Source: Polaromonas sp. (GTDB taxonomy: Bacteria; Pseudomonadota; Gammaproteobacteria; Burkholderiales; Burkholderiaceae_C). Taken from it: a stretch of 64,000 bases of DNA. Location: contig JANXTM010000187.1 of assembly GCA_025352405.1 (NCBI GenBank), positions 632 to 64,631 of the forward strand. Reading direction: 5' to 3'. Position 1 is the first letter of the stretch. The number at the start of each line of letters is the position of its first letter. The notes beneath the pieces are model-generated. The model was not told the origin of the DNA, did not search any database, and was given only the letters and a program-made list of their open reading frames with translations. The translations under genes were made by a program, and so were the position numbers. Below, in pieces: positions 3,657-64,000 of the stretch.

Positions 3657-3671
3657 CGCGAAGTAAAAAGC

Positions 3672-4223: not shown

Positions 4224-4261
4224 CGCCTACTGCAACCAGCACTCAAAAAAAACAACAACTC

Positions 4262-5158: not shown

Positions 5159-5326
5159 TGCAGACGGCTGCGGAGTCTCATGCAGGCAAAGAAGGCCCTG
5201 TCCGGCATTGGTTTACAGTAACTTCAACATCCGTTCACGCCGCTATGATTTGCTGCTGACGTCAGGTCTGACGACATCCCTTTCCAACCGGGCGCGAACT
5301 AGCGCCGTCCAACCGAAAAGCACACC

Positions 5327-5911
5327 ATGAAAACTTCACGAACAACCTCATTTCTCTCAGCCAGCTTGTTAAGCCTTAGCCTGGCGGCCTGCGGCGGTGG
5401 CAGTGCCGGATCAGACGGGACAGTGAGCGGCACGGTCACAGGGCTGGGCAGTGGCCTGAATTTAATGTTGCAAAACAATGGTGTCGACACCATTGCGGTG
5501 GCCAGCAACGGGACCTTCGCCTTCCCCACAAAACTTTCATCTCTCGGGCCCTTCAGCGTGACGGTATCGACGCAGCCCATTGGGCAATTTTGTACCCTGG
5601 CACGCGCCACAGGTGTCATTCCCACAGATGGCAACCAGGCCAACGCAACCGTCGTGGCGTGTGCGGCAAACTCTTTGGGTGCAACGGTGTCAGGCCTGAA
5701 CGCCGGCAGCACGGTGACTTTGAACAATGCGGCTGTGCAGATGGTGGTGAATGCAAACGGCGTGTCAACTTTCCCCGGAATCTTGGCTGGTGGCACAACC
5801 TTCACTTTGGCTGTTGCTGCACAGCCCGCAACGCAGGTCTGCACCCTGTCCAACGCCAGCGGAACCATCACGGCCGGCGTCCAGTCGCTTGCTACATTGA
5901 ACTGCATTTAA
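5327..5911 (+). CDS. Lipoprotein made of two tandem ~80-aa beta-rich repeats
   Basis: Lipobox LAAC-GGG; two repeats of TVSGL..G..L.L.NN....V.ANG..F..QP..Q.C...C type. Confidence 0.75.
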   Translation: MKTSRTTSFLSASLLSLSLAACGGGSAGSDGTVSGTVTGLGSGLNLMLQNNGVDTIAVASNGTFAFPTKLSSLGPFSVTVSTQPIGQFCTLARATGVIPTDGNQANATVVACAANSLGATVSGLNAGSTVTLNNAAVQMVVNANGVSTFPGILAGGTTFTLAVAAQPATQVCTLSNASGTITAGVQSLATLNCI

Positions 5912-5957
5912 CGGATCAGCCGTCGAAATTTCGGGTCTGAGTTTCATAACAGGGTGC

Positions 5958-7769
5958 ATGCAAATGCTTTTGGCCAAAAAACTTTCTGCATTCAAAACCT
6001 TCAGCGGCCGCGTCTGGGCTTTGTCGGCACCCTATTTCAGATCTGAAGACAAGTGGAAGGCACGCGGGCTGCTGGCGGCCATTGTGGTGCTGAATTTGGC
6101 GGCGGTGTACATGCTGGTGCTGCTCAATGAGTGGAACCGGGTGTTTTATGACGCACTGCAAAACAAGGACCAACCAGTTTTCTGGACGCAGCTGGGGCGC
6201 TTCACCTATCTGGCCTTTGCCTTCATCATCATTGCGGTGTACCGCTTCTACCTGACGCAACTGCTCGAAGTGCGCTGGCGTGCCTGGATGACGGCGCACT
6301 ACCTCCAGCGCTGGCTGGCCGACCATGCGTTTTACACCCTGGAGCTGGCGCGCTTCTCAGGCGAAAAAAACACCGCCGACAACCCCGACCAGCGGATTCA
6401 GGAAGACATCAACCTGTTCACCACCTACAGCATTTCGCTGAGCATGGGCTTGCTCAATGCCGTGGTGACCTTACTGAGTTTTGTCGGCATTTTGTGGTCG
6501 CTTTCGGGCGCTTTTTCTTTCACGCTGGGCGGCAGCAGTTACAACATACCGGGTTTCATGGTCTGGATGGCTGTGCTGTATTGCGCTGTAGGCAGCGTCA
6601 TCACACATTACATTGGCCGGCCGCAGATCAAGCTCAACTACCAGCAGCAGCGCTATGAGGCTGACTTTCGGCACCACATGGTGCGGGTACGCGAATACAG
6701 CGAATCAATCGCGCTGGACAAAGGTGAAGCGGTCGAGCGCGCGCAACTGGACCTGCGTTTTTCCAGCGTTCTTGCGAACTACCTGCAGCTGATCAAGAAG
6801 CAGAAAAACCTGGTCTGGTTTACCAACTTTTTTGGCCAGGCCGCCGTGGTGTTTCCGTTCATTGTGGCGGCGCCGCGTTTTTTCAGCGGTGCCATCCAGC
6901 TCGGTGAGCTGATGCAGATATCCTCTGCCTTTGGGCGGGTGCAAGACTCGCTCAGCTGGCTGGTTGACAACTACAGCAACCTCGCCGCCTGGCGCGCCAC
7001 GACCGACCGTCTGACCAGTTTTGAGGACAACATAACGGCTGCGGGGCAGAAAACACGGGCGCATTCCGCTATCAATTCAGAAGCAGACAACGCACAGGTT
7101 GCAACAGCCTCAAATGCACTTTCTGCCAGTGATCTGACTTTGAGCCTACCCGCTGGTCAGGTACTGCTGAGTGATATGTCTTTGAGCGCCAACCCCGGGG
7201 ATAGCGTGCTGTTCAAGGGGCCATCGGGCAGTGGGAAATCGACCCTGTTTCGGGCGTTTGCGGGTATCTGGCCGTTCACAAAAGGCCACACCCACCTGCC
7301 GCAGGGCGCGATGTTTATTCCCCAGCGTCCCTACTTCCCCGATGGGCTGTTGCGCGATGCGCTGGCCTACCCGCAACCCACCGCGCGGTACAGCGACGAG
7401 GCGCTCAAGCAGGCCCTGCAGGACGCCATGCTGCCGCAACTCATCAGCCGTCTGGACGACCAGGACGCGTGGAGCCAAAAGCTGTCTGGCGGCGAACAAC
7501 AGCGGCTGGCCATTGCACGCGTGCTGCTCAAAAAACCGCAATGGATTTTTGCCGATGAAGCCACCAGTGCCCTCGATGAGCCCGCTGAAAAAGCACTTTA
7601 CGAAAAACTGCAGACGCATGTGGCTACCGTGCATGGCGGCATGGTGTCAATTGCCCACCGCCCCAGCGTGGCGGCTTTTCACAACCGGCAATGGACGCTT
7701 GAAAAACTGCCCACGGATGCGCCATCCCTGTACGGCCTGACTGACAGTCCGCTGAAAAATTCGCCCTGA
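5958..7769 (+). CDS. ABC transporter fused permease/ATPase, YddA/BacA(Rv1819c)-like (ABCD/SbmA-type TMD)
   Basis: DNPDQRIQED, EADFR TMD motifs; Walker A GPSGSGKS, LSGGEQQR, DEATSALD. Confidence 0.9.
   Translation: MQMLLAKKLSAFKTFSGRVWALSAPYFRSEDKWKARGLLAAIVVLNLAAVYMLVLLNEWNRVFYDALQNKDQPVFWTQLGRFTYLAFAFIIIAVYRFYLTQLLEVRWRAWMTAHYLQRWLADHAFYTLELARFSGEKNTADNPDQRIQEDINLFTTYSISLSMGLLNAVVTLLSFVGILWSLSGAFSFTLGGSSYNIPGFMVWMAVLYCAVGSVITHYIGRPQIKLNYQQQRYEADFRHHMVRVREYSESIALDKGEAVERAQLDLRFSSVLANYLQLIKKQKNLVWFTNFFGQAAVVFPFIVAAPRFFSGAIQLGELMQISSAFGRVQDSLSWLVDNYSNLAAWRATTDRLTSFEDNITAAGQKTRAHSAINSEADNAQVATASNALSASDLTLSLPAGQVLLSDMSLSANPGDSVLFKGPSGSGKSTLFRAFAGIWPFTKGHTHLPQGAMFIPQRPYFPDGLLRDALAYPQPTARYSDEALKQALQDAMLPQLISRLDDQDAWSQKLSGGEQQRLAIARVLLKKPQWIFADEATSALDEPAEKALYEKLQTHVATVHGGMVSIAHRPSVAAFHNRQWTLEKLPTDAPSLYGLTDSPLKNSP
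7037..7085 (+). repeat. Dispersed ~63-bp repeat, copy 3, in the TMD-NBD linker of the ABC transporter
   Basis: GGCTGCGGGGCAGAAAACACGGGCGCATTCC-GCTAT-CAATTCA-GAAGC; closely matches the copy at 39562-39608. Confidence 0.65.
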
Positions 7770-26138: not shown

Positions 26139-27095
26139 ATGCGTTCATCTTTTCCCCCTTTTGCATGCCTCGCAGCCTTTGAAGCCGTAGCACGCCGAAG
26201 AAATTTTTCTCGCGCGGCAAAAGAACTGCATCTCACCCCCTCGGCCGTCAGCCACCAGGTGGCCAAACTTGAACAGTTCTTGAATATCCGCCTGTTTGAT
26301 CGCACGGCACATAACGTCGACCTCACCGTTGCGGGCGACGATTACCTCAAGCGGGTAAGCGGCGCCATGGCTGCAATCAGTGCAGCCACTGACAATGCGA
26401 GAAAAGGTGTACGGAATTCGCTGCATGTACACGCGACGCCGAGCTTTGCGGCGCTTTGGCTCATGCCACGCCTGAAGGACTTCGCGAAAATTCATCCCGA
26501 TATTTCGCTTTCCATGTCGTCATCGGTGGTGCATTCAGACTTCGCTGCTGGGCATACGGACATTGACATCCGTTATGGCGCCCCGCATTGGCCGCAGCTG
26601 GCGGTGCGGCCAATCTTTGAAGAGCAGGTCATGCCGCTGGCCAGCCCGGCCTTCATCAAACGCCATCGGATTGCATCTGCCGAAGACCTGATGCACGTTC
26701 CGCTCATTCAGTCCACCGTCGGCGTGGTTCAATGGCCGGACTGGTTTGCTGCCCAGGACATCGCGCACACGCCGGGGAACTATGCCTATCGTTTTGATCG
26801 CGCATTCATGGCGCTGGATGCCGCCGTTCAGGGCTTGGGTGTAACGTTTGAAAGTACTTCCATTGCTGCGCTGCACCTGAACAAGCGCAGGCTCACACCC
26901 GTATTTGCGTCAGGCGAGTACCTGCCAGTAAAGGCGCACTTTCTGGTGTACCCCGAGCGCCACGCACAACGACCTGAGGTCATGCGCTTTGTTGACTGGC
27001 TTCTGGAGCGGGCAATTGCTACCCCGGACCTGCAGATGCAACCGGCCGGAATGCTGTCTTCGCCAGCTGAGTCGCCTAAGGCAAACAAAGCGTGA
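26139..27095 (+). CDS. LysR-family regulator (GcvA-like), divergent from the SDR-TRAP-transketolase operon
   Basis: NFSRAAKEL.LTPSAVSHQ HTH; WLMPRL; DIDIRYG. Confidence 0.92.
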   Translation: MRSSFPPFACLAAFEAVARRRNFSRAAKELHLTPSAVSHQVAKLEQFLNIRLFDRTAHNVDLTVAGDDYLKRVSGAMAAISAATDNARKGVRNSLHVHATPSFAALWLMPRLKDFAKIHPDISLSMSSSVVHSDFAAGHTDIDIRYGAPHWPQLAVRPIFEEQVMPLASPAFIKRHRIASAEDLMHVPLIQSTVGVVQWPDWFAAQDIAHTPGNYAYRFDRAFMALDAAVQGLGVTFESTSIAALHLNKRRLTPVFASGEYLPVKAHFLVYPERHAQRPEVMRFVDWLLERAIATPDLQMQPAGMLSSPAESPKANKA

Positions 27096-27450
27096 AATTC
27101 TGATCAGGAAACGGGTCCCAGTAAGGCATTCGCCCAATTTTGGCTGGTCACGCGGTCATCATTCCGCGCAATTGAAGGCGTAAAAAAAGTCGCACCACCT
27201 CACATCGTTTTGGTTTTGTGAAACTCCAATGGCAACCAAGAACAGGCGGCTATATTTAATTTATGGTCAGACACTGGTTGATTTCGAGTCCATTGTGATC
27301 TTTGAAACGGGTGCAATTACTACTCCAAAGCGTCGATTTTGTCGGTGAAGCTTGAAGGTCAACTTTTCACAGCAAAAATAGCGGGAAAAGACTGATGGCC
27401 AGTCTTTAGGGCGGCCAACATAATGGCGACCCAAATCAAAACAGGCGACA

Positions 27451-28068
27451 TTGATGAAACGTTCCACTTTCATTTGCGCGGAACTGCTGGGCTCGCTCTT
27501 CGTCCTGCAAGGTTGCGGCTCCATGCCCCGTACGGGCGACGGCTGGAGCACCCTGATTGAGGGCAGTTCCGGACTGGACAACTTCAACCGCGTCGGCGAC
27601 GCGAACTGGCGCGCAGAGGACGGCACCATCGTGGCTGACCGCGGCGCAGGCGGCTTCCTGGTGACGAAGAAGAGTTATCGAGATTTTCAGATTCGCGCAG
27701 AGTTCTGGTCCGACCACACCACCAACAGCGGCATTTTCATGCGCCCACAGGACCCGGCCAAGATCAATGCGGTTAATTCTTATGAAGTAAACATCTTCTA
27801 CCAACGACCTGAACCGGTCTACGGCACTGGCGCGATCGTCAATGTCTCCAAGGTGGTTCCCATGCCCAAGGCCGGCGGTAAGTGGAACGTCTATTAAGTG
27901 ACGGTGAAAGGCTCGCAGCTGACAGTGGTCCTGAACGACGTGCAGACGGTCAACGTACGGGACGAAAAGTTCGCGCAGGGACCAATCGCACTGCAATACG
28001 CGCTAGGCGCAAACAACATTCCAGGTGGGCCGATCAAGTGGCGAAAGGTGCAGGTCCGCGAGATTTGA
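27451..28068 (+). pseudogene. DUF1080 (3-keto-disaccharide hydrolase-like) lipoprotein with an in-frame nonsense codon
   Basis: NSGIFMR, YEVNI, GKWN motifs; TAA at 27895-27897 is followed in frame by VTVKGSQLTVVLN...GPIALQ...IKWRKVQVREI* ending at 28068. Confidence 0.85.
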
Positions 28069-28576
28069 GCGTTGTCCTAAACCGAGTCGTATGCGACCTT
28101 GCTGGCCCGATCTCGCAGGCGCGCGCGGCCAAAGGCCGCTTCCTCGTTACTGAACCGCTGACTTTCCGAAAACATTTGAAACCGCAACGGCATTTGTAGC
28201 CAGGACCGCAATTAATTTCGGGTTACCGATCGATCCCGTGTGGCGGCTCCAGGCCCATAGCGCATACCAGTTTTAGGTCCGATCGCAGATCTCTGAATTG
28301 CAGGCTTCTGGCGACAGCAACCAACACACAAGTGAACGACTTTAAAAGGCACACCTAAAACTCAATTGCTTTTAAACCTGCATGAATGCCTGAGCTTTGT
28401 TGGCGCCATTCATTGGTTGGAATAGTTGCTATGCTGGGCAATTAAGATCGCAAACAGGTACCGAGCAGTCATGCCGGTTAGCGGCGTTGACTCCTGGGTC
28501 CACTAAGCGGTCCTTTGAACGCACCGCAACCGGTCGTTGCCCGCCCGAGTGAAGGTCCCCGCGCATCGCTGCCAGA

Positions 28577-29050
28577 CTACCCGGCCATAACCGGTTTCAA
28601 GTACTTGGAAGGGTGCTCGGGTTCCCCCTCTTGAGTCAGCCTTGCCCTTTCGAAGCAATCAACGTCAGCGGGCAAGGCGACGCCCGACTGTGCTGACTGG
28701 GTCCATATGTTCGAAGTTATGTCCACCGCCTTGGGGTTGTCGTAGCAGCCTCGCGAGACTGCTCGAAAATCAGGCCAGCGCTCATAGGTAAGGCCGATAG
28801 TGGTTCCACAAACTGGGCAAAACTCAACGTACACCTTCTTGCCGCTCACATCTGAGGTGTGCTCGTACTTGCGCACCTCGCCAGCATTGAACTCGACTGC
28901 CTGAACTGGGAACACGGAGTTGGCATAGAACGCGGAACCGGTCATACGCTGACAGAAAGTGCAGTGGCAAACAAATGTTCGAACTGGCGCCTGATTGACG
29001 TGGAATCTGACAGCTCCGCAGAGACAGCCACCTTCAAGAACAAGCGACAT
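28577..29050 (-). CDS. GFA/CENP-V family Zn protein
   Basis: GGCLCGAVR, CHCTFCQR, FCPVCGT; starts at MSLVLEGG (29050), not at the ORF-track start 29434. Confidence 0.9.
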   Translation of the reverse strand: MSLVLEGGCLCGAVRFHVNQAPVRTFVCHCTFCQRMTGSAFYANSVFPVQAVEFNAGEVRKYEHTSDVSGKKVYVEFCPVCGTTIGLTYERWPDFRAVSRGCYDNPKAVDITSNIWTQSAQSGVALPADVDCFERARLTQEGEPEHPSKYLKPVMAG

Positions 29051-29147
29051 GGTGAAACTCCGGGTTAGACCCTGATGGTGTGATGCGAGGCATGTCCTCA
29101 AATGAAACTGTACCACCCCTGTGTCTGCTTTTGGTCGCAACTCGCCG

Positions 29148-29554
29148 GTATTGCCACTGACCGAAAATTGACGGCTGGGAGTGCGGCGCATAAAGCTGCG
29201 CGACCAACTCTCTGACGGAGAGACACGTAGGCGAACTGGACTGGCCAGACATACGGTCAAGGAGTGGCTCAAGGCGCCAGGCGACATTAAACCGGAGTAC
29301 CAACGCAGTAAGGCTGATGGCAAGCTCACGCCGTTTATGGCCGTGTGCCTGAGCAAGCGTTGCGCACGGACGCGCACAGAGCCGAACAGGCAGGCTGCGA
29401 CTGCAGGGCTCTGTTCTCGCGGATCCAGGCCCAAGAATGCGGGGATGGCTAGAGCGCCGTTGCAGACTTCATTCGCGCATGACGAATGGAAAGCATCGAG
29501 GACCCCAGCAAAGTGGCGTTCGGTGCTCTCGCGCTATTCCTGGAGGCATATTGA
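29148..29554 (+). mobile_element. istA: Decayed IS21-family istA 5' remnant with degenerate left end
   Basis: VRRIKLRDQLS..E..RRTGLARHTVKEWLKAP..KPEY...GKLTPF, then a +1 frameshift to EQALRTDAHR..RALFSRIQAQ..G*SAVADFIRA*; stops at 29450 and 29480; TTGCCACTGA/CCGAAAATTGAC end-like motif. Confidence 0.8.
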
Positions 29555-29647
29555 TGACTTTAATTGCTTGGAGTTTAGATTTTTCTAAACAAATAATTGA
29601 CACATTAACTTAGCCGTACAGACTATGAAATTTTTCTCATCTTTTGG

Positions 29648-29693
29648 GATTACTGGATTAATTCTCCGATTACCGTTTTAATTATTACGATCA
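29648..29693. repeat. Two GATTAC-N4-TTAATT direct repeats with 20-bp period next to the glmS 3' end
   Basis: 29648-29663 and 29668-29683; abrupt GC-to-AT shift about 22 nt past the glmS stop. Confidence 0.7.
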
Positions 29694-29715
29694 TTCACGC
29701 CAGAGACCCCCGCCT

Positions 29716-31566
<1,851 letters not shown>

Positions 31567-39974: not shown

Positions 39975-40144
39975 CCCCCACGCTTGCCCACTGCGTGTGG
40001 CTACCTGCACCTTGCAGGCCGCCGCTCGCCAGAGGCTTCGCTTCTGTCACCTGTCCAAACCTGCTTAAGCAGGTTTGGAGCCGCAGGCTCCAGCCCCGAG
40101 GGGGCCGCTGCGCCTGTGGACCGGCGAAGCCGCTTCCAGGGCCC
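39975..40144 (+). repeat. Second repeat family (CCCCCACGCT...GCCCCGAGGGG...), copy A, with an ~88-bp nested insert
   Basis: Aligns with 42414-42492; the insert contains the perfect 26-bp palindrome TCCAAACCTGCTTAAGCAGGTTTGGA (40054-40079). Confidence 0.8.
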
Positions 40145-40245
40145 TCGTTTGAAAAGAAAGGTGTCCGCCCATCCGCATACCATCGTGTTTGCCAACCGTT
40201 CATAATCAGGGCTCACTTCATCGCTGGCTCTGGTAGTTCGGGACT

Positions 40246-40635
40246 TCAACGGGGCTTGTAAGCCACCACGTCAATTTCTACCCGCGCATCGACCATCAGC
40301 CGCGCCTCTGTTGTAGAGCGCGCCGGTTTTTTGTCGCCAAAGTAGCCCATATACACCCGGTTAAAACTGCCAAAGTCGCGTGCATCCTGCAGCCAGACGG
40401 TGGTTTTGCACACATCCTCAAGCGTGCAGCCCGCCAGCGCCAGGGCGGTTGACAGGTTTTTCATGACCTGGCGGGTTTGCACCTCAATGCCGCCCTGCAC
40501 GATTTCGCCTTTTTCATCGCCTGGCACCTGGCCCGACACATAAACAAAATCACCCGCGCGCACAGCGGGCGAAAACGGGCGGGGCTGCTGGTCAGAAGCC
40601 ACCGGCGGGTTACCAAAATATTCGAGTGCAGACAT
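40246..40635 (-). CDS. RidA/YjgF family enamine-imine deaminase
   Basis: PFSPA, YVSGQ, Q.RQ.M.N, PARST (conserved Arg), VEIDVVA. Confidence 0.93.
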   Translation of the reverse strand: MSALEYFGNPPVASDQQPRPFSPAVRAGDFVYVSGQVPGDEKGEIVQGGIEVQTRQVMKNLSTALALAGCTLEDVCKTTVWLQDARDFGSFNRVYMGYFGDKKPARSTTEARLMVDARVEIDVVAYKPR

Positions 40636-50289: not shown

Positions 50290-51717
50290 TCAGTCAGCGA
50301 CGCGTTCACACTTGCTTTTACTGCCCAGAATATTGCAGCGCAAAACAGCCCCGCCTGCAATGTTGTACTCCGTCAACAGCCATCGGGCCGACGCCTCCGG
50401 ACCAATCCTGTCAAGTGTCGCAAAGCCATAGTCAGACCTCGCGGCGTAGTCTTCGACGACTGCACCCGGATAGGGCTGCATATCTGGCGGCAGACTCAAA
50501 GGAATTTTCCCCTCATTCGCTGATCCGGAATTACCCAAAACCAGTGTGGCCGGATGGGCTGTTTTAAAACTAATGGCCTCGAAAAAATGGATGTGACCGT
50601 GCAGCGTGACATTTACATTGTCAGGAAAGAGTCGTTTGGGATGCAGGGTTTCGAACACCGACTGCAAACCCGCGTTACCGCCTGGTCTAGCCGGCTTCGA
50701 CTTGGCCGCTGGGGCGAAGGCCAGCAGCGGGTGGTGGCTCATGAAAAAGCTGTGCGGTTTGAGGGCTGTCAACTGGTCTACTGCCAGCATTTGCGTCTTG
50801 TATTTGCCGTACGCGTGGTCTTTGAAAGAAAACGGCTTGCCACTGGTTTTTGACGAATCAAAAACAACGAACTGGGTATCCGGGCCAATCGCAACAGAAT
50901 ACGGGTCAGAGTAATCTGCATCTTGATCGAATTTGGGGTCGTTGCACGAACGGGCTTCACTCCAGGGCTGCCGGTCCATGAAGCGGAACCAGCCTTGTCC
51001 GGCGCGAGCGCAAGATTCGTGATTGCCACGCACAAATACCCAGGGGGCGGCCGTAAGCAAAGGCCGAGCCGGATTGAAAAAGTCAGCCTTCCAAGCATCG
51101 TAACCATAGCCCCACGGGCTGCCAACGCAGCCGGCCTCCCCTTGAGGGCATGGGCTTTCCCGGTAATGCATGTCGCCGATATGAATCACCAAATCCGGCT
51201 TCAGAGCGGCGGCACTCTGCGCGATTTTGGCAAATGGCCACTGCTCCACATCGTTGCAGAGTTGAAACGCATTTTCTGAAGCTTTCATGCGGCACCCGGT
51301 ATCCGCAATGATGACGATGCGGCGTATGTCAGCCTTGGGTGCCGGTACTTCGCGACCTGCAACACGTGCCTTGAGCACACCAGCGGGCCACGTGGCCTCA
51401 CAGGTCAACACATCAAACAGTGCCTCTTTTTTGTCCACCTGAGCACCAACGGATCTCACCGCCATCGCGCCTGGTGCAGCCCGAACAGACATGGCTTGAG
51501 CGGGGTGGGCGTCCCACGCAATATCCGGACAGCTTGCCGAACGGGTTAATGCCCTGACGATAGCGCGTTGACCTTCAGCCTGTACTGTGTAGACACTTTC
51601 AATCTCGCCTGCAGGAGCGGCGGCGACAAACAAAGCCGGTACGCTGGAACAGGCGGCCAGGGCCAACGTTGTCAGCAGGGCAGTCGTTGAAAACCAAAGA
51701 CGTGGACTTTTAAACAT
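50290..51717 (-). CDS. Calcineurin-like metallophosphoesterase lipoprotein
   Basis: Lipobox LAAC; DTG, GDMHY, GNHE, HHP, GHIH motifs. Confidence 0.85.
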   Translation of the reverse strand: MFKSPRLWFSTTALLTTLALAACSSVPALFVAAAPAGEIESVYTVQAEGQRAIVRALTRSASCPDIAWDAHPAQAMSVRAAPGAMAVRSVGAQVDKKEALFDVLTCEATWPAGVLKARVAGREVPAPKADIRRIVIIADTGCRMKASENAFQLCNDVEQWPFAKIAQSAAALKPDLVIHIGDMHYRESPCPQGEAGCVGSPWGYGYDAWKADFFNPARPLLTAAPWVFVRGNHESCARAGQGWFRFMDRQPWSEARSCNDPKFDQDADYSDPYSVAIGPDTQFVVFDSSKTSGKPFSFKDHAYGKYKTQMLAVDQLTALKPHSFFMSHHPLLAFAPAAKSKPARPGGNAGLQSVFETLHPKRLFPDNVNVTLHGHIHFFEAISFKTAHPATLVLGNSGSANEGKIPLSLPPDMQPYPGAVVEDYAARSDYGFATLDRIGPEASARWLLTEYNIAGGAVLRCNILGSKSKCERVAD

Positions 51718-51764
51718 GAGATTGTTTGTGCTTGATAGCGTTATTGATAATGATTCTAGAGCGC

Positions 51765-52487
51765 TCAAAAGCAGGCAACCCAGATTTGGTAGCCGCCTTC
51801 TTTCCCCTGTAATGCGGCTGGCGGGGAGGGGAATACCGCAGCCTGAACGGCTTTGACGGCTGCCCTGTCCACTGCACCTAATCCGCTGCTCACGATAACG
51901 CGTATCGTGCTTGCAAGGCCATCATGCAAGGCGAACTCGATGCGTGTTCGCCCTTTAAAGTTCAGCGCTGAAGCCACAGCCGGTAACTCAAACGCTGCTT
52001 GTACGGCAGCCGCGAGCTTGGCGTTGTAAGCCGGAGCAGGATCAACGATTGCCAGCGGGGGTGTGGCAGCAGAAACCGGTTGATTTGCCAACACCGCCGA
52101 TGAAGACGGGTTTGACTGGCTTGCAACTGCAGCCACCACGACAGTTTCGGACGGTGCAACGACAGCAGGTGCTTGTGGTGACGCCATGGCCGGTTGAACT
52201 ACCCGCGGAACAGGCAAAACAGCTTGCAAGGCAGGCAAATGCGGCTCGGGCTTTGGGGGTGCCGCTTGCTGGCGTATTTCGGGTTCTGGCGGTGCGTCGG
52301 GTTTCAGCAAATCAATGCTGATTGGCACCACGGGCTGGACAACTGGGGCGGTGGCTTTGGTCATCCATATCAGGGCACAGAGCAACGCCACCAGTTCTAT
52401 TAAAAGTGCCAGACCAAAGGCTTGCCAGAGACGCGAGCTGTGCACCCTGAGCCTGGGTGCAGGCAAGGCTTCCGAAGCGCTTCTCAC
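51765..52487 (-). CDS. tonB: TonB-family energy transducer
   Basis: Single N-terminal TM, Pro/Ala-rich linker, C-terminal SSG..AVDRAA..AV...FP.PP. Confidence 0.85.
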   Translation of the reverse strand: MRSASEALPAPRLRVHSSRLWQAFGLALLIELVALLCALIWMTKATAPVVQPVVPISIDLLKPDAPPEPEIRQQAAPPKPEPHLPALQAVLPVPRVVQPAMASPQAPAVVAPSETVVVAAVASQSNPSSSAVLANQPVSAATPPLAIVDPAPAYNAKLAAAVQAAFELPAVASALNFKGRTRIEFALHDGLASTIRVIVSSGLGAVDRAAVKAVQAAVFPSPPAALQGKEGGYQIWVACF

Positions 52488-52885
52488 CGCACAGCTTGAC
52501 GCGCAGCCAACCCAATTTGCGTCGCGCCGCCCTGGCGCACGGCATCTATCGCGGTCATGACTTGCTGCAACGAAGCATCATCACCGCCGGCTATGGTGAC
52601 AGCCAGCCGGGCCGGGTCGCTAGAACGCACGAGTGCCGTGATTTGATCGGTACCAGTTACCTTCCCTTCGACAAACAGCTCACCGCCAGATCTAATTTCA
52701 AGCAACAACTTTGGCGACGGAATAATTTGTGCAGTCGAGCTGACGGGCAGCTTGGACACATGGCCCGTGGTGGGGATCATGCGCAGCGTCAGCATGGCAA
52801 AGAAAACCAGCAGAAAGAGCATGATGTCGATCATGGGGATGATCTCTATGCGGGCCTTGCGCACTTCAAAATAACGCATGCTCAA
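52484..52885 (-). CDS. exbD: Biopolymer transport protein
   Basis: IIPMIDIMLFLLVFF. Confidence 0.92.
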   Translation of the reverse strand: MSMRYFEVRKARIEIIPMIDIMLFLLVFFAMLTLRMIPTTGHVSKLPVSSTAQIIPSPKLLLEIRSGGELFVEGKVTGTDQITALVRSSDPARLAVTIAGGDDASLQQVMTAIDAVRQGGATQIGLAARQAVR

Positions 52886-53562
52886 GCCGCCAATGCGCTG
52901 GTCACCAGACTCGTCGCGCGCTGCAACGGCATCGCAGCCATCGGAACGGCGGCAGACCGGCGGTTGAGCAGCATGACTTTCATGGTTTCCATTTGATGCA
53001 CGATCAAACGCACCTTGGTGCTCAAACCGTTGAAAAATACCAATCCAATCATGGCAATCAACAAGCCCGACGCGGTGGCTATCAGCGCCTCGGCTATTCC
53101 GCCGGTCACTTGACCGGCTCCATTTTGTACATCACCCAACACCGAAAACGCAGTAAACATACCCACAATAGTGCCGAATAAACCTAACAGCGGTGCCAGC
53201 GTAATTACCGTGTCGAGTACCCACAGTGACCGGTCAAGGCCAGGAACCTCACGCATGACGGCCTCTTCCAGATGCCCCGCGCAAACCTCGCGGGCTGAGT
53301 CGCCCGGCTCAATCAGCGCGGCATTAAGCAATTGAATATGCGGCAGCTTGCTGTATTTTCCCATGCTGGCCGACATGGCCTGGCTTCGCAATGCTGTGTT
53401 GGCCTGCAGCAGGCCCATCAGTTCTTCGCCGCCCTGCTGCATTTTTGACAAGTACACGGTACGTTCAATGATCACGGTCAACGCCACGAGCATCAGCAGA
53501 CACATCAGGTAAAGCGTACCGCCCGATGCGTTGGCCAACTCAATCAACTTGGAAATGCTCAT
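52882..53562 (-). CDS. exbB: MotA/TolQ/ExbB proton channel
   Basis: APLLGLFGTIVGM, GIAEALIATA.GL. Confidence 0.92.
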   Translation of the reverse strand: MSISKLIELANASGGTLYLMCLLMLVALTVIIERTVYLSKMQQGGEELMGLLQANTALRSQAMSASMGKYSKLPHIQLLNAALIEPGDSAREVCAGHLEEAVMREVPGLDRSLWVLDTVITLAPLLGLFGTIVGMFTAFSVLGDVQNGAGQVTGGIAEALIATASGLLIAMIGLVFFNGLSTKVRLIVHQMETMKVMLLNRRSAAVPMAAMPLQRATSLVTSALAA

Positions 53563-53564
53563 GA

Positions 53565-55904
53565 TCAAAAATCCGCCTTGAGGGATACCTGCAAGCTGCG
53601 GGGCGCCTGATAAATATAGGTATCCAGTGGCAAGGACGCGCCTGTGCTAATGGCCGTGACCTTCAGGCTGTTGGCCAGATTGAAGACGTTCAACTGTAGT
53701 TTGAGTGACTTTGAAAATGAGCTGACATTTTTAAACGTATACGCCACGCCCAGATCAAGGTTGCCGTACGCAGGGGTTTTGTAATAGTCATAAAAAGCCT
53801 GACCATTGATGGGTGCTTTGGTGGCGTCATAGTCTTTCTGGCGGACAGCACCTGTGCGCTTGTAGATCAATGATGCGGCCCAGGGCCCTTCGCTGAACAA
53901 GCCGCCCAATGCAGCCGTCATCTCAGGTGCGCTGGCAATTTGTTGCCCGGTGTCGGTGGCTTTGGCGCTGTTGAGTGAACCATTGACATAGGCCGAAAAC
54001 CCACCGCCAATCACGTAAGCGGCTTGCGCCTCAACGCCCTGGTAAGTCGCGCCACCGATATTGATGAATGCTGCTGCCGCACCCGGCAAGCCATTGGACA
54101 CCAGCTTGTTGGTGAAGTTGATGCGGTAAATATCTGCATCCCATGTCATGCGGTCGCTCTTGCCGACAATACCTGCCTGGTAGTTAGTCGATTTTTGCGG
54201 TACCGAGCTGTTTTGGGTCGGGTTGGCGATGTAGAAAGTGTTCAGGTCGGGTATCTGAAAGCCCTTGGCGTACTGCGCGTAAACAGCCAACTCGGAATTG
54301 ATCTGCTGGTTCACCGTCAAAAAGGGCAAGGTCGCCTTGTAGTCAACCGATGCCCTGGCGTTGAGCTGGCGAGTGGCTTGTTGAACCAGCGCATCCACCG
54401 AACGCGTGATGCTGACGTACTTCAGGCCAGGGGTGATCGTGGTGCCTACAAAAGGCGTCCATTCAAACTCGGCAAACGGTTGCACGGTTTTGACTTTCGA
54501 TTGCTGGTCAAACAACACGCTGTCTATTGGCCGGTTTCCGCCACTCAGAAAGCTGCTGTTGGCCGCTGTTCCTTCAACACGGTTGTAGGCGCGGGTTGTC
54601 AGGTCCAAGTCGTATTGGTGGCGGTCTGATGATGAGGTTTCGTACCAGACGCCTGCCCGGGCCAGGCCCGCGTCAAGCTGTTTTGTTGCCTTGAAGATAT
54701 TGCCGTAAACGCGGTATTTATTCTGCTTTTCAATGCCTGGAATATTGCCATTGAGCGGTGCCAGCGTAGCCCCCTTCAGAACCCATGTTCCCGCTGGTGC
54801 AGTGCGACGCGGGTCGGGCCCGGTGGGCAAGGTGCCGGTCCAGGTAGGGTCGGTTGAGGAGACGGTCTGGTTGTTGTAGGCGTAGGTGTACAACTGGTTG
54901 TCAATGTTCCAGCCGGCACCCAAGTCACTGCGCAGGCGGATGTAACTGAAGTCCGTGTCTTTCACCGTGCCGTTGTAGCCCTGGTAATTCATGCTCTTTG
55001 GGTCATTGTTGAGCTGAAAGTTTTTACCAAACGCGGCGATCTGCGTCAGCGTTGCGCCTTTGTTGCTGTCGGGCTGGGCGTAGGTGGTTTTGTTCACAGA
55101 CGTAAAAACAGTCAGCAGCGAAGCGTCGCCCACCGGTCGCTCAAACTTGAGCGTGTAATTGTTGCTTTTGATCGGGCTGTAGCTGAGGTAGCCGTCAGAC
55201 GTTTCACGCTGATAGTTGAGTTGCAGCGTGGCGTCACCAAAGTTGGGCAAGCGACCGCTCTCATAAGAAACCCCGTACAAACGGGTATTCCAGGTGCCCA
55301 GTGATGTGAATACGCTGGTGGTTTGTTCTTGCGACGGTTTTTTGGAAAACAGATTAATCGAGCCGCCAAACGTGGCATAACCGATATCGCTCGCCTTGCC
55401 CGGGCCGCGCTCGACCACCGCGCCACCAATGACAGAGGCGGGGAAAAACGAAGTTGAGTGATGCGACGGATTATTGGTATCGCCCCAAGGTATGCCGTCG
55501 AAGGTGATATTGTACTGGTCGTCCTTGAAGCCGCGCAGCGTGGTCTTGGTTTCGCTCAAGCCAGGGCCGTTGGCCGAGTCGCCAGACAAGCTCGGAGCGA
55601 TGTTCACGATGCGGCTGTATTCGGCGGTCGGTGCAACGGACAGATCAATAAATTCCCGCGTGATGATGGACTGCGGCTGCGTGGCCTGCAAGCTGGCCTG
55701 CGTAGGGGCTATGGCGGATGCCGTGCCCTTGGCGGCCTCGTCGGGTCGGTAGGCGCCTGCTGCAGTGCTGGCGCCTATGGTGCCTAGATCAACTGCGGCA
55801 TTGCCGGTCTGAGCCAGTGCAATAGGGCCGGCGGAAATAGACAGCATGGCCAACGACACCAGACGTGCAAGGGTTTTAGGCTGGAGGGCGCGCGAGTTTT
55901 TCAT
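53565..55904 (-). CDS. TonB-dependent outer-membrane receptor
   Basis: Signal peptide, plug-domain motifs (LRGF, DGIP, VVERGPG), beta-barrel pattern, terminal Phe (SLKADF). Confidence 0.93.
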   Translation of the reverse strand: MKNSRALQPKTLARLVSLAMLSISAGPIALAQTGNAAVDLGTIGASTAAGAYRPDEAAKGTASAIAPTQASLQATQPQSIITREFIDLSVAPTAEYSRIVNIAPSLSGDSANGPGLSETKTTLRGFKDDQYNITFDGIPWGDTNNPSHHSTSFFPASVIGGAVVERGPGKASDIGYATFGGSINLFSKKPSQEQTTSVFTSLGTWNTRLYGVSYESGRLPNFGDATLQLNYQRETSDGYLSYSPIKSNNYTLKFERPVGDASLLTVFTSVNKTTYAQPDSNKGATLTQIAAFGKNFQLNNDPKSMNYQGYNGTVKDTDFSYIRLRSDLGAGWNIDNQLYTYAYNNQTVSSTDPTWTGTLPTGPDPRRTAPAGTWVLKGATLAPLNGNIPGIEKQNKYRVYGNIFKATKQLDAGLARAGVWYETSSSDRHQYDLDLTTRAYNRVEGTAANSSFLSGGNRPIDSVLFDQQSKVKTVQPFAEFEWTPFVGTTITPGLKYVSITRSVDALVQQATRQLNARASVDYKATLPFLTVNQQINSELAVYAQYAKGFQIPDLNTFYIANPTQNSSVPQKSTNYQAGIVGKSDRMTWDADIYRINFTNKLVSNGLPGAAAAFINIGGATYQGVEAQAAYVIGGGFSAYVNGSLNSAKATDTGQQIASAPEMTAALGGLFSEGPWAASLIYKRTGAVRQKDYDATKAPINGQAFYDYYKTPAYGNLDLGVAYTFKNVSSFSKSLKLQLNVFNLANSLKVTAISTGASLPLDTYIYQAPRSLQVSLKADF

Positions 55905-55999
55905 GGTGCAAGTTTTTTTGGTTAAGAAAACGGTTGCCTTATCTTTCATCCCAAAAAGGCCATGAAACATTTGGCAAGGTTGTAGCGTAATTACTTTTA

Positions 56000-56017
56000 A
56001 TGACAATTTTGTGGCAT
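56000..56017 (-). promoter_or_regulatory. Pho-box-like direct repeat facing the TonB-dependent receptor
   Basis: Minus strand ATGCCAC-AAAA-TTGTCAT (7-4-7, 11-bp period) versus consensus CTGTCAT-AWAW-CTGTMAY. Confidence 0.5.
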
Positions 56018-56043
56018 GTCACAGGAACTATTTGAGGATTAAG

Positions 56044-56061
56044 TTTTCACGCGCCTGTCAC
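56044..56061 (+). promoter_or_regulatory. Pho-box-like direct repeat facing the alkaline-phosphatase-family gene
   Basis: TTTTCAC-GCGC-CTGTCAC, followed by a TATGGT -10-like hexamer. Confidence 0.4.
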
Positions 56062-56109
56062 ATACACGGGCTATGGTTTACGGCTTTACCTGAAAATCCA
56101 AGGACACAA

Positions 56110-57729
56110 ATGAAATTTGACTTTCTCCCATTGGCGCTTGCCATCGCTGCGGCCCTGACCGGATGTGCACTGCCTGCTCCTGCCATTGCGCCAGCGGCCG
56201 CGTCTCGCGTGCTGCTGCTCAGCGTGGACGGCCTGCACCAGCAGGACCTTGCAAACTGCATGGCAGCCAAGACCTGCCCCGCCATCAGCAGCCTGGCGCA
56301 AACCGGTGTCACCTACAGCAACGCACTGACGCCGGGCTTGTCCGACTCATTCCCAGGTCTTGCTGCGCTGCTGACAGGTGGCTCCGCCAAAAGTACCGGC
56401 CTTTTTTACGACGTGACGTATGACCGTACGCTTTATTCGCCTGCCGACAACACCTGCAGCGGTCCGCAGGGATGGAATATCGTTTTGGACGGCACCACCG
56501 GCTTTGACGGGATCAACGGTGGCGCACTCACCCATCTCGATGGCGGAGGCAAATTCAATCCGCAGTCAATACCGCACGCCAGGATCAATGGCAGTTGCAT
56601 TGCTGTCTACCCCCACAACTACCTGCAGACCAACACCATTTTTGAAGTCATCAAGGAGCGGATTTCTGGTGCTAGAACTGCTTGGGCCGACAAGCACGCA
56701 TGGGCATACGACTGGGTCAATGGCCCTTCAGGCAAGGGCGTGGATGACCTGTCCCGCACCGAGATTGATTCGATTGACGCAGTGACCGGCACCAGCTACG
56801 CCGACCGCCACACGCACACCCAGGTGTTCGATAACTTGCACGTCCAGACCGTTCTCCACCAGATCAATGGCAAGGACTCAACGGGCCTGCAGGCGGCGGC
56901 GGTACCAACTGTTTTTGGCACCAATTTTCAAACACTCAGTGTTGCCCAAAAAGCGCTTAACGCTAACGGCGGTGGCTACACAGGCGCCCACTTCACGCCA
57001 GGCCCGCAGGTAACCGAGGCGATCGCCTACGTCGATGCATCGGTCGCCAAAATAGTCGCTGAACTCAGGGCAAAAAACCTGCTGAACTCGACCTTGATCA
57101 TCATTACAGCCAAGCACGGACAGTCGCCGGGCGACTTCAGCAAGCTGGTAAAAGTTGGTGACACCCTCACGGCGCTAATGGAGGCCAATGGCTACGTCGA
57201 TGCCAAAGGCAAATGGGGTCAACATGCGACCACCAGCGGAAAGCTCAATGACGGCACGGGGCTGGCCGGGACGGGTGCCATCGAAACCGACACCATAGGG
57301 CTGATCTGGCTTAAAAACCAAAATCAACTCGCCGCCGCACTGACCACCTTGAACGCCAATCTGGGCTGCAAGCCACCGGGCATTTGTGCCGATGGACCGC
57401 AGGCGCTGATTCTTTCGGGCGCAGCGCTCGTGAGCCGCTTCGGTAACCCGGCGCTCGGTCGCACGCCCGACATCGTCGTGCAGCCCAATCCAGGCGTGAT
57501 CTATTCCGGCAGCAAAAAGAAAGACGCGGAGCATGGCGGCAATTCACCCGACGACACCCATGTGGCGCTGCTGGTTTCACTGCCTTCCATTTCAGCCAAA
57601 ACCATCACCAGTGAGGTTGTCACGACGCAGGTTGCGCCGACTATTTTGTCGGCACTTAAGCTTGACCCGGCGCTGTTGAACTCCGTAAAGGTAGAGGGCA
57701 CTCGCGTATTGCCCGGCCTGGGTTTTTAA
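56110..57729 (+). CDS. Alkaline phosphatase superfamily (nucleotide pyrophosphatase/phosphodiesterase-like) lipoprotein
   Basis: Lipobox LTGC; SVDGLH, SDSFPG nucleophile region, TAKHG, EHGG. Confidence 0.85.
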   Translation: MKFDFLPLALAIAAALTGCALPAPAIAPAAASRVLLLSVDGLHQQDLANCMAAKTCPAISSLAQTGVTYSNALTPGLSDSFPGLAALLTGGSAKSTGLFYDVTYDRTLYSPADNTCSGPQGWNIVLDGTTGFDGINGGALTHLDGGGKFNPQSIPHARINGSCIAVYPHNYLQTNTIFEVIKERISGARTAWADKHAWAYDWVNGPSGKGVDDLSRTEIDSIDAVTGTSYADRHTHTQVFDNLHVQTVLHQINGKDSTGLQAAAVPTVFGTNFQTLSVAQKALNANGGGYTGAHFTPGPQVTEAIAYVDASVAKIVAELRAKNLLNSTLIIITAKHGQSPGDFSKLVKVGDTLTALMEANGYVDAKGKWGQHATTSGKLNDGTGLAGTGAIETDTIGLIWLKNQNQLAAALTTLNANLGCKPPGICADGPQALILSGAALVSRFGNPALGRTPDIVVQPNPGVIYSGSKKKDAEHGGNSPDDTHVALLVSLPSISAKTITSEVVTTQVAPTILSALKLDPALLNSVKVEGTRVLPGLGF

Positions 57730-57757: not shown

Positions 57758-58741
57758 TCAATCCAGTCCGTCCAGCGTATCCGGGTCAGGCACATCACCC
57801 ACCGCGTGCCGGGTCAGTGCCGCCTGCGCCTCGAGCCACTTGCAAAAGGCCACCACTTCAGGTCGCGCCACATTGCGCGGGCTGACCACCAGCCAGTACG
57901 CCATAGGGGAGTCAAGCCGCAGCTTGGGCAGTGGTTCGACCAGATCGCCCTGGGCCAGGCTTTCGGCAATCAGCGGCAGGCGCGCCAGCACCACGCCCTG
58001 GCCCGTGAGCGCGGCCTGCACCATCTGGTAGGCGTAGTTGAAGTAGAGCCAGCGTTTGGCCTCCAGTTTGGGCGCCGCATGCAGGTCCAGCCAGCGCCGC
58101 CAGGTCAACCACTCCAGGTGCGTGTGGTGGGCATCCCCGGCTTCAATCAGGGTGAAATGCGCCAGGTCATCGGGCTTTTTAAGACGCGGCCCGCTTTTGA
58201 GTAACCACGGGCTGACGACAGCAGTGATTTGTTCGCCAAACAGGCGAATCGCGTGCGGTGGCACATGGCTGGCGGGGGCATAGCGCAGGGCCAGGTCGAT
58301 GTCTGAAATATCGAGGTCAACGGCAACGTCTGACGCATCAATGCGGATGTCGATGTCCGGGTGGTCCCGCTGAAATCCCTCCAGCCGGGGAATCAGCCAC
58401 ATCGAGGCAAGTGACGCAAAGGTGGTGAGTGCCACGCTTTTGCGACCGGCGCTCTGGCGAATCTGCCGCACCGCGCCGTCGATGCGCTCCAGCGATGGCG
58501 TGACGGCGCGCAAAAGTATGGCACCGGCCGTGGTGAGTTCCACCGCACGCGTGTGGCGATGAAACAGCGAAACGCCGACATCCTCTTCCAGGCCCTGGAT
58601 CTGGCGGCTTACAGCCGACTGCGTGAGGGCCAGTTCCTCCGATGCCGCCCGGAAGTTCAGGTGGCGCGCCACCGCTTCAAAAGCACGCAGTTGACCGGCC
58701 GAAATCGGCCTTGAACGCAGATGGGTTTGTGAATGCAGCAT
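57758..58741 (-). CDS. LysR-family regulator (GcvA-like)
   Basis: LNFRAASEELALTQSAVSRQI HTH; WLIPRL. Confidence 0.92.
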   Translation of the reverse strand: MLHSQTHLRSRPISAGQLRAFEAVARHLNFRAASEELALTQSAVSRQIQGLEEDVGVSLFHRHTRAVELTTAGAILLRAVTPSLERIDGAVRQIRQSAGRKSVALTTFASLASMWLIPRLEGFQRDHPDIDIRIDASDVAVDLDISDIDLALRYAPASHVPPHAIRLFGEQITAVVSPWLLKSGPRLKKPDDLAHFTLIEAGDAHHTHLEWLTWRRWLDLHAAPKLEAKRWLYFNYAYQMVQAALTGQGVVLARLPLIAESLAQGDLVEPLPKLRLDSPMAYWLVVSPRNVARPEVVAFCKWLEAQAALTRHAVGDVPDPDTLDGLD

Positions 58742-62963: not shown

Positions 62964-64000
62964 GGCAATCCAGATTGATGTCGTCATCATGGCCGCAGGC
63001 AAGGGCACGCGGATGAAAAGCACGTTGCCCAAAGTGTTACACCGATTGGGCGGCCGCGCTTTGCTGGGCCATGTGCTGGACTGCGCTGCACAGTTATCGG
63101 CGCGGCAAGCGGTCGTTGTCACGGGCCACGGCGCTATCGAAGTTGAAGCAGCCTGCGCAGCCATGGCAAGCCGTAGCGGCTATTTTGACTTAAATTTTGC
63201 GCGCCAGGACCCGCAGCTGGGAACCGGCCACGCCGTGCAACAGGCTGTGCCCCTGCTTCTCGACGACGGCGTGACGCTGGTGCTGTCAGGCGACGTGCCC
63301 TTGACCCAGGCTGCTACCCTGACGTCCCTGCTGGACCAGTGCGACGGCCAGCGGCTGGCACTGCTGACCTTGAGCATGCTCGACCCCGCAGGCTACGGCC
63401 GCATCGTGCGCGCGCAAGCGCACGTTTCCGATCCTTTGCGCAGCGGCAGCGAAGCCTCAGCCCAGGTGCGCGCCATCGTCGAGCACAAGGACGCCACGCC
63501 AGCGCAGCGCCAGATCACCGAGATCTACAGCGGCATCATGGCCGTGCCCACGCGCCTGCTGCGCAGTTGGTTGGCCCGACTTGACAACAAAAATGCACAA
63601 AGCGAGTACTACCTGACCGACATCGTGAAATTTGCGGTGGCCGATGGTGTGGCCGTGGTGGCGCACCAGATTCTTGATGCCGCACAGGTCGCAGGCGTCA
63701 ACAGCCCGGTGCAACTGGCCGAACTGGAGCGCGTCTACCAGGGCCGGCTGGCCACCGCCTTTATGGAGCAAGGCGTGCGCCTGGCCGACCCGGCGCGGTT
63801 TGATGTGCGCGGCACACTGAGCTGTGGGCGCGATGTCGAGATCGACGTGAACTGCGTATTTGAAGGTACTGTTACTTTGGGCGATGGCGTACGCATCAGC
63901 GCCAACTGCGTGATCGCCAATTGCACCATTGCAGCTGGCGCCATGATTCACCCCTTCACCCACATTGACGGCGAAAAGCTCGGCGTGCAGGTGGGTGAAG
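62962..64000 (+). CDS. glmU: Bifunctional GlcNAc-1-P uridyltransferase/acetyltransferase (3' end outside the window; absent from the ORF track)
   Basis: VIMAAGKGTRMKS, QLGTGHAV, GDVP, GYGRI, EYYLTD, GVN, start of hexapeptide repeats. Confidence 0.96.
   Translation, partial: MAIQIDVVIMAAGKGTRMKSTLPKVLHRLGGRALLGHVLDCAAQLSARQAVVVTGHGAIEVEAACAAMASRSGYFDLNFARQDPQLGTGHAVQQAVPLLLDDGVTLVLSGDVPLTQAATLTSLLDQCDGQRLALLTLSMLDPAGYGRIVRAQAHVSDPLRSGSEASAQVRAIVEHKDATPAQRQITEIYSGIMAVPTRLLRSWLARLDNKNAQSEYYLTDIVKFAVADGVAVVAHQILDAAQVAGVNSPVQLAELERVYQGRLATAFMEQGVRLADPARFDVRGTLSCGRDVEIDVNCVFEGTVTLGDGVRISANCVIANCTIAAGAMIHPFTHIDGEKLGVQVGE
63132..63194 (-). repeat. Dispersed ~63-bp repeat, copy 8, in frame inside glmU
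   Basis: Reverse strand TTTAAGTCAAAATAGCC-N28-GCTTC-AACTTCG-ATAGC; encodes AIEVEAACAAMASRSGYFDLN. Confidence 0.75.

Follow-up and report, generated by a model that had tools for sequence, protein, structure and literature searches.

A candidate Pho-regulon phosphorus-scavenging module with its own TonB motor in Polaromonas

A 64,000-nucleotide stretch of the Polaromonas sp. assembly GCA_025352405.1 (contig JANXTM010000187.1, positions 632 to 64,631; hereafter the window) encodes a TonB-dependent outer-membrane receptor that is followed on the minus strand by exbB, exbD, a tonB-like gene and a phosphoesterase gene, with the gene for an NPP-type lipoprotein of the alkaline-phosphatase superfamily diverging from it on the plus strand. 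We consider it likely that this locus is a phosphorus-scavenging module of the Pho regulon that carries its own TonB motor. An earlier note, made from the sequence alone, had read it in the same way, as a locus for phosphorus rather than iron under Pho-type control, and that reading is supported by the presence of Pho boxes without Fur boxes, by phoBR, ppk, ppx and pstS genes and varied phosphatases beside related receptors, and by the joint expression of the locus in glacier ice. All six genes that the earlier note described were recovered by open reading frame analysis and domain searches, which confirmed their domains, as were the lipobox of each enzyme (L-A-A-C in the phosphoesterase, L-T-G-C in the NPP-type protein) and the lack of siderophore genes within the module.

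Pho-box-like repeats in the shared promoter and across the receptor family

The longest open reading frames begin too far upstream for three of the genes, and the signal peptides place the starts at ATG 55904 for the receptor (MKNSRAL...), ATG 56110 for the NPP-type protein (MKFDFLPL...LTGC) and ATG 51717 for the phosphoesterase (MFKSPRLW...LAAC). With these corrected starts, the promoter region shared by the two divergent units spans 55905-56109 (205 bp). Pho boxes were scored out of 14 against the model CTGTCAY-N4-CTGTCAY. On both strands of the window just 17 sites reach at least 11/14, and the 205-bp region holds two of them where about 0.05 would be expected; these are the two 7-4-7 repeats that the earlier note had pointed out. 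A TANNNT hexamer lies exactly 10 nt past each box (TATGGT on the NPP side, TACGCT on the receptor side). A box followed by a -10 hexamer without a -35 element is the classic layout of PhoB-dependent promoters such as those of E. coli pstS and phoA, and the arrangement typical of the Pho regulon, at least two 7-bp direct repeats with an 11-bp period that take the place of the -35 about 10 bp upstream of the -10 hexamer, is found here. A generic scan for sigma-70 promoters and terminators returned no promoter in the intergenic region, and the locus did not rise above shuffled expectation; such a result is expected, because PhoB-dependent promoters characteristically have no -35 element.

The two boxes are also the sole conserved islands in a three-way promoter alignment of the window with the related loci L081 and L001, the flanks having diverged. 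The receptor-side hexamer TACGCT recurs at equal spacing in L081, and on the NPP side the equally spaced hexamer is TATGGT in L081 and TAAAAT in L001. In L001, a Polaromonas metagenome-assembled genome (MAG), the same two boxes face a different divergent unit (3329-7752, minus strand), which encodes a di-haem CCP/MauG-family lipoprotein (PF03150), a 163-residue lipoprotein and a 702-residue secreted protein with a PHP-like 'DFHNHTTCSDG' motif and no Pfam match.

The association of the boxes with the receptor extends to its wider family. Eighty loci with relatives of the window receptor (one per species, 40-78% identity) were collected, and the 250-nt regions upstream of the receptor (n = 78) were compared by Fisher test with 250-nt control intergenic regions of the same loci (n = 176). 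Pho boxes of at least 11/14 occur in 52 of the 78 receptor upstream regions and in 16 of the 176 controls (p = 1e-20), and those of at least 13/14 in 9/78 and 0/176, respectively (p = 2e-5). Of the 52 boxes, 46 are oriented towards the receptor, mostly 60-130 nt ahead of its start codon, and several promoters carry three to four repeats phased at 11 bp. The same signal emerged from an enrichment analysis of 6-mers that used no prior motif, in which the half-sites GTCACA, TGTCAT and TTGTCA ranked highest, and the consensus derived from the receptor promoters themselves is TGTCAY-N4-CTGTCAY. Among receptors with at least 55% identity to that of the window, 49 of 66 have a box.

Fur boxes, by comparison, are not enriched in the receptor upstream regions, either at 13/19 or better (4/78 versus 5/176 controls) or at 14/19 or better (0/78 versus 1/176), and the best match upstream of the window receptor is 10/19, which bears out the earlier note's statement that a convincing Fur box is absent. 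An Rfam search of the module returned no element or riboswitch, cobalamin riboswitches included. Readings that invoke Fur control or a riboswitch were rejected on these results.

Genomic company, enzymes and motor

The receptor matches the plug (PF07715, 31.7 bits; cut-off 23.9) and barrel (PF00593, 111.5 bits; cut-off 27) domains of TonB-dependent receptors and shows no additional N-terminal domain by Pfam. A candidate TonB box ('VDLGTIGAS'), assigned by eye only, follows the signal peptide. ECF sigma and anti-sigma factor genes were not found nearby, and the protein does not score as BtuB (TIGR01779, 48 bits against a cut-off of 600; NF007926, 39 against 836). The family is large, with more than 120 clusters at 60% identity or above, and the nearest species-level relative among the 80 loci comes from a Polaromonas MAG. 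The window or a near-identical strain was also found in rock and sediment metagenomes.

The gene neighbourhoods of the related receptors point towards phosphate. A phosphoesterase gene comes after the receptor, either directly or past exbB-exbD-tonB, in 44 of the 63 loci with enough downstream sequence. Three phosphoesterase families occupy this place: that of the window, a second one within PF00149 and one that is MPE-like. In loci lacking all three, the neighbouring gene encodes a Phytase-like protein (PF13449), a 5'-nucleotidase-type enzyme, another PF00149 protein or, in two loci, a PAP2 acid phosphatase. In addition, phoB (TIGR02154, 337 bits; cut-off 296) and phoR (TIGR02966, 384 bits; cut-off 334) adjoin orthologous receptors, ppk1 and a SixA-like gene are frequent neighbours, and some loci also encode Ppx, CYTH-CHAD or a PstS-like binding protein. 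Genes for PlcP/LpxH-like phosphoesterases lie near the receptor in L009 and L064 (positions +5/+6 from it) and in L056 (11817-12626), and a DUF3419 (BtaA-like) gene lies near it in L004; as both are genes of phosphorus-free membrane lipid remodelling, the receptor often lies within a wider phosphate-starvation island. Genes for siderophores, haem or cobalamin do not recur in the 80 loci, SusD-like genes were found neither there nor in the window, and none of the loci adds an inner-membrane transporter, which fits periplasmic hydrolysis followed by uptake through Pst.

The phosphoesterase of the window, a calcineurin-type enzyme, is purple-acid-phosphatase (PAP)-like, as judged by its motifs and predicted fold. 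PAPs are recognised by seven metal ligands in five motifs (GDxG, GDxxY, GNH(D/E), xxxH and GHxH), and the corresponding positions D139-T-G, G181-D-M-H-Y185, G231-N-H-E, H328 and G374-H-I-H377 are invariant in 22 sequences. Searching the PDB by sequence returned no match for this protein; its AlphaFold model (pLDDT 88) retrieved purple acid phosphatases at all of ranks 1-20 of a Foldseek search of the PDB (E 4e-13 to 3e-8, TM score 0.4-0.64), among them wheat purple acid phytase, lupin PPD1 and plant enzymes that likewise have the N-terminal beta-sandwich. Ten cysteines are invariant across the 22 orthologues, which would fit an oxidising compartment, and many orthologues have a plain signal peptide with no lipobox.

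The NPP-type protein (PF01663, 81.9 bits; cut-off 23) has its nearest solved relatives in the bacterial NPPs 7mw8 and 2gsn (Xanthomonas NPP), found by a profile search of PDB sequences (E 3e-7). It shares with them PF01663, and its N-terminal metal-ligand Asp and nucleophile loop align with theirs; in contrast to them, it has an invariant Ser (S80) instead of Thr at the nucleophile position, with the loop D-S-F-P-G instead of T-F-P-N-H, is about 140 residues longer and, with only remote similarity, forms its own clade. That clade is well conserved (about 69% identity in Paraburkholderia and Burkholderia). The structure model reached a pLDDT of only 49, from a shallow alignment (at least 66% identity), which is too poor to show the geometry at the nucleophile. 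NPP-type enzymes are typically diesterases or pyrophosphatases and PAPs typically monoesterases or phytases. Because of the PAP-type motifs and predicted fold, the PAP-like enzyme is probably the monoesterase of the pair and the NPP-type enzyme the diesterase or pyrophosphatase; the roles implied by the earlier note are probably reversed, since its metallophosphoesterase is the PAP-like protein and its alkaline-phosphatase-superfamily gene the NPP-type one.

The co-occurrence check that the earlier note had suggested upheld only one of the two enzymes. The receptor keeps company with metallophosphoesterase families in the 44 loci described above; the NPP-type gene is present in 0/80 species-level receptor loci, stands alone in Andreprevotia and Paraburkholderia, and has a related receptor nearby in just 2/80 metagenomic NPP loci. 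The idea of a conserved NPP partner was rejected on these counts, and the NPP-type gene is an accessory, lineage-specific addition rather than a core part of the module. It has nevertheless joined such receptors in three arrangements: divergent from the receptor operon (window and L081), at the end of a receptor-exbB-exbD-tonB-PAP-NPP run with all genes in one direction (L082), and ahead of a 45%-identical receptor (L150, 6893-15225, plus strand, and also L161). In the third, the order is NPP, a 432-residue protein without a Pfam match, receptor, TonB (PF03544 above cut-off), OmpR-type regulator and histidine kinase. That the gene was recruited repeatedly and independently speaks for a functional link in these lineages.

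The motor proteins retain the residues expected in the membrane, with the transmembrane Glu of ExbB ('GIAEALIAT') and the transmembrane Asp of ExbD ('PMIDIML') both kept. All equivalog models for ExbB, TolQ, ExbD and TolR score far under their cut-offs, and the two proteins therefore represent a divergent subclade. Similarly, the TonB-like protein falls slightly short of PF03544 (TonB_C, 22.0 bits; cut-off 24.6) and TIGR01352 (22.7; cut-off 27.1), although its C-terminus is strongly conserved among 21 orthologues (L003-L079), encoded at the same gene position in 21 loci. The canonical motif of TonB and TolA is S-x3-H (S16/H20 in E. coli). The transmembrane helix of the TonB-like protein has neither this motif nor any His, and instead carries a Glu that is invariant in 21/21 orthologues; a membrane Glu without S-x3-H may mark a distinct TonB subclass. 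Such a variant may inform how these motors couple to the proton gradient.

Table. Features of the module and its shared promoter, with positions in the window.
Feature	Position	Strand	Evidence or remark
PAP-like lipoprotein ('metallophosphoesterase')	50290..51717	-	PF00149; lipobox LAAC; N-terminal beta-sandwich and binuclear metallophosphatase domain
TonB-like energy transducer	51765..52487	-	N-terminal transmembrane helix with invariant Glu, Pro-rich spacer, C-terminal TonB-type domain
exbD	52484..52885	-	PF02472 at 64.6 bits; 4-nt overlap with neighbours
exbB	52882..53568	-	PF01618 at 98.9 bits; start TTG 53568, more probably ATG 53562
TonB-dependent outer-membrane receptor (779-residue precursor)	53565..55904	-	PF07715 and PF00593
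Candidate -10 hexamer TACGCT, receptor operon promoter	55984..55989	-	Predicted from sequence; 10 nt past Pho box
Pho-box-like repeat ATGCCAC-aaaa-TTGTCAT, towards receptor operon	56000..56017	-	11/14
Pho-box-like repeat TTTTCAC-gcgc-CTGTCAC, towards NPP gene	56044..56061	+	12/14, equal-best in window
Candidate -10 hexamer TATGGT, NPP promoter	56072..56077	+	Predicted from sequence; 10 nt past Pho box
NPP-type (alkaline-phosphatase-superfamily) lipoprotein	56110..57729	+	PF01663 at 81.9 bits; lipobox LTGC

Genes of the minus-strand run overlap by 4 nt or are separated by very short gaps, the exception being 47 nt ahead of the last gene. The G+C content of the module (50290-57729) is 56.2%, compared with 59.6% and 61.3% in its flanks, and the flanking genes are the same in L081, with the L082 module placed in another chromosomal context; together these features suggest that the module moves as a unit. 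A LysR-family regulator gene (57758-58741, minus strand) is convergent with the NPP-type gene. L081 has this gene as well, and in the Rugamonas loci L029 and L032 the receptor is adjoined by LysR genes from the same cluster.

Transcripts in glacier ice

Transcripts of the locus were found in two glacier-ice metatranscriptomes (X6 and X9), used as contigs only, from a strain 94-96% identical to the window. Expression is given here as the assembler word depth of the contigs, a crude measure. In X6, a 2,460-nt contig (53459-55917) runs from the receptor into exbB at depth 382, a 2,229-nt contig at depth 199 extends from exbB across exbD and tonB into the phosphatase gene, and a 1,350-nt contig (56189-57534) covers the NPP-type gene at depth 207, whereas elsewhere in the window depths range from 5.7 to 76.5 (median about 15) over about 19 contigs of this strain that are 400 nt or longer. 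X9 gave the same ranking at lower depth. These data support transcription of the operon as one unit, and high expression in situ of the two divergent units together.

The locus is the most highly expressed of the window only when long contigs of the same strain are compared, as a few other bins (40001-40300 and 63000-63900) reach 116-572 at 90% stringency. In these two bins, the summed X6 depth of up to 572 and 250, respectively, comes from many short, loose-ended pieces, which are probably repeats or conserved genes of several organisms. Elsewhere in the window, RNA contigs in both ice samples join 27046 to 29718 and skip 2,671 nt (depths 86.8 and 16.4). The contigs are anchored by just 20-28 nt at this junction, which adjoins the region downstream of glmS and may reflect a repeat or another organism.

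Proposed function, alternatives and known systems

We propose that, under low phosphate, phosphorylated PhoB would bind the two back-to-back Pho boxes and activate two divergent promoters without -35 elements, one driving the receptor-exbB-exbD-tonB-PAP-like operon and the other the NPP-type lipoprotein. The receptor, energised by its own ExbB-ExbD-TonB, would import a phosphorylated compound whose size, charge or dilution makes porins inadequate. Phosphate would then be freed in the periplasm by the lipid-anchored PAP-like enzyme, which is expected to be a broad phosphomonoesterase, an anhydride-cleaving enzyme or a phytase; in this lineage, the NPP-type enzyme would first cut diester or pyrophosphate bonds. 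As the module has no inner-membrane transporter, the ordinary Pst system would take the freed phosphate into the cell. The best candidate substrates would be polyanionic monoesters, for instance inositol phosphates, followed by nucleotides or oligonucleotides and then by condensed phosphates.

Several observations weigh against this proposal. The Pho-box model is uncalibrated on the host's own pstS and phoB promoters, and the two boxes of the window reach only 11/14 and 12/14. Among distant receptors (below 55% identity), some of them from Chlorobi, only 3/12 have a box, although another PhoB motif may apply in Chlorobi. Upstream of genes of the NPP family, the box is only weakly enriched (14/70 versus 16/176 controls, p = 0.02), with none at 12/14 or better. 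The depths of the ice transcripts leave phosphorus and iron limitation inseparable, and the E. coli +2 rule predicts that the two lipoproteins are sorted to the outer membrane, where a surface location is possible. Finally, in low-phosphate proteomes of Burkholderia, the only TonB receptors listed in the top-10 table (Table 1 of that paper) are depleted rather than induced. The NPP family of the window was not identified in that paper, and Burkholderia is absent among the 80 loci with this receptor family.

Among the alternatives, import of inorganic or mineral-bound phosphorus (pyrophosphate, polyphosphate, phosphite or metal-phosphate complexes), with the phosphatases acting as pyro- or polyphosphatases or being just co-regulated neighbours, fares best, though we regard it as unlikely. 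It would account for the polyphosphate-related genes ppk1, ppx and CYTH-CHAD that adjoin the receptor in several loci and for the wide variation in the partner enzyme family, as expected if no specific organic moiety were involved, and it is established enzymology that PAPs and NPPs cleave phosphoanhydrides too. However, the Ppk, Ppx and CHAD proteins are cytoplasmic and their genes often cluster with pst-phoBR in Betaproteobacteria anyway, the Phytase-like, PAP2 and 5'-nucleotidase partners point to esters, and we know of no TonB-dependent transporter for inorganic phosphate species.

Less probable still is a surface position of both lipoproteins, in which they would hydrolyse their substrate outside the cell and the receptor would take up a product or cofactor, or would act with the lipoprotein as a capture device of the SusD/TbpB type. 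Neither lipoprotein has Asp at position +2 (Ser and Ala are found there), so that sorting to the outer membrane is expected, and surface lipoprotein partners of TonB receptors have ample precedent (Sus and Pus; PMC8115612). Yet free phosphate needs no TonB-dependent gate, the locus encodes no components for surface-lipoprotein export, and lipid anchoring is not essential, given the many PAP-like orthologues that lack a lipobox.

It is improbable that the receptor is an ordinary one for iron chelates, haem or cobalamin, with a TonB set of its own and phosphatase neighbours unrelated to it. The public annotation ('iron complex outermembrane receptor protein') and the weak best profile matches (BtuB and PhuR) point that way, the former reflecting generic source names; PAP-type enzymes need Fe(III), making iron supply under phosphorus stress conceivable, and the di-haem CCP/MauG protein is encoded divergently from the receptor in L001. 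Against these stand the lack of Fur-box enrichment, of a cobalamin riboswitch and of BtuB scores anywhere near the cut-offs, as well as the 80 loci, in which phosphate genes recur and siderophore or haem-utilisation genes do not. Least probable is that the repeats in the window arose by chance beside genes without common regulation: their imperfect scores and the negative sigma-70 scan would allow it, but that scan result is expected of PhoB promoters, and two sites in so short a region, both conserved in diverged relatives, a family-wide enrichment and high joint expression in two samples all stand against it.

Beyond a phosphorus-scavenging module as such, a bolder view can be offered only tentatively and is more doubtful than the module itself. 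The receptor family may be the outer-membrane gate of a widespread, hitherto unrecognised TonB route by which freshwater, soil and glacier Burkholderiales take up polyanionic phosphorus compounds, served by a distinct TonB subclass with a transmembrane Glu and ranking among the most highly expressed functions on ice. If so, the candidate compounds would be inositol phosphates, polyphosphate or nucleic-acid fragments, the expression claim would concern Polaromonas-like bacteria in glacier ice, and the receptor would be the first among TonB-dependent transporters for which a phosphorus cargo is defined, with a bearing on how bulky or highly charged phosphorus compounds cross the outer membrane. 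To our knowledge, no cargo has been identified for the low-phosphate-induced TonB transporters of Flavobacterium, Caulobacter and Pseudomonas. The very high transcript level on glacier ice also suggests a role in the phosphorus cycling of cold, phosphorus-poor waters. The main value of the locus is as a tractable system for finding such a first cargo, as it gives genetics a clean point of entry (a single receptor preceded by conserved Pho boxes, a motor of its own and an adjacent phosphatase whose type varies by genome) and has cultivable carriers, including Limnohabitans sp. JirII-31, Actimicrobium antarcticum JCM 16673, Massilia, Rugamonas and Roseateles saccharophilus DSM 654.

A literature search returned nothing specific on this receptor family or on an operon that joins TonB and PAP. 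The individual parts have recognisable counterparts. With known PAPs (plant kbPAP, wheat purple acid phytase and lupin PPD1), the PAP-like protein shares the seven-ligand motif set, the combination of beta-sandwich and catalytic domain and the best fold matches; it differs in having just 12-16% identity to them and no sequence-level match in the PDB, and in its ten conserved cysteines, lipoprotein anchor and operon linkage to a TonB system. A bacterial PAP-like enzyme is known from Burkholderia cenocepacia (Yeung et al. 2009, as cited in PMC9306846).

At the level of whole systems, the earlier note had assumed that TonB receptors usually carry iron chelates, B12 or glycans, a premise that is outdated, since phosphate-linked receptors have been published (PMC8115612, PMC11208175, PMC4971064). 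For example, the P. aeruginosa PUMA3/PphdA operon (phdA-pdtB-exbB2-exbD2-tonB4-PA0696-0701) is expressed only at low phosphate and depends on PhoB (PMC4971064). Like the window, it has a dedicated ExbB-ExbD-TonB set, a likeness drawn from its description; it differs in its ECF sigma factor VreI, its link to two-partner secretion and the lack of a described receptor-phosphatase pair. In Caulobacter crescentus, PhoB controls several TonB receptors that are thought to import alternative phosphate donors, and its regulon also includes a nucleotide pyrophosphatase, a phytase and phosphatases (PMC11208175); Cc0171 with ElpS is a further case (PMC2996285). The Caulobacter genes are dispersed, in contrast to the single operon with a motor described here, and the likeness again rests on how the receptors are described.

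A parallel in logic is PUS, the phosphate utilisation systems (PusCD and orphan TonB-dependent transporters) of Flavobacterium johnsoniae and other Bacteroidetes, which is specific to low phosphate and encoded beside co-expressed periplasmic phosphomono- and diesterases, one cluster sitting in a phoBR operon (PMC8115612). Import, periplasmic hydrolysis and phosphate uptake are proposed for both systems, the substrate being deduced rather than demonstrated in each. In contrast to PUS, the window module has no SusD-like cap, belongs to a proteobacterial receptor family, brings its own exbB-exbD-tonB and has a PAP-like partner, and its Pho control is deduced from proteobacterial Pho boxes rather than measured. 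The locus works like PUS without being a member of it. Low-phosphate TonB transporters beside phosphatases are already known, and what is new here is the proteobacterial variant.

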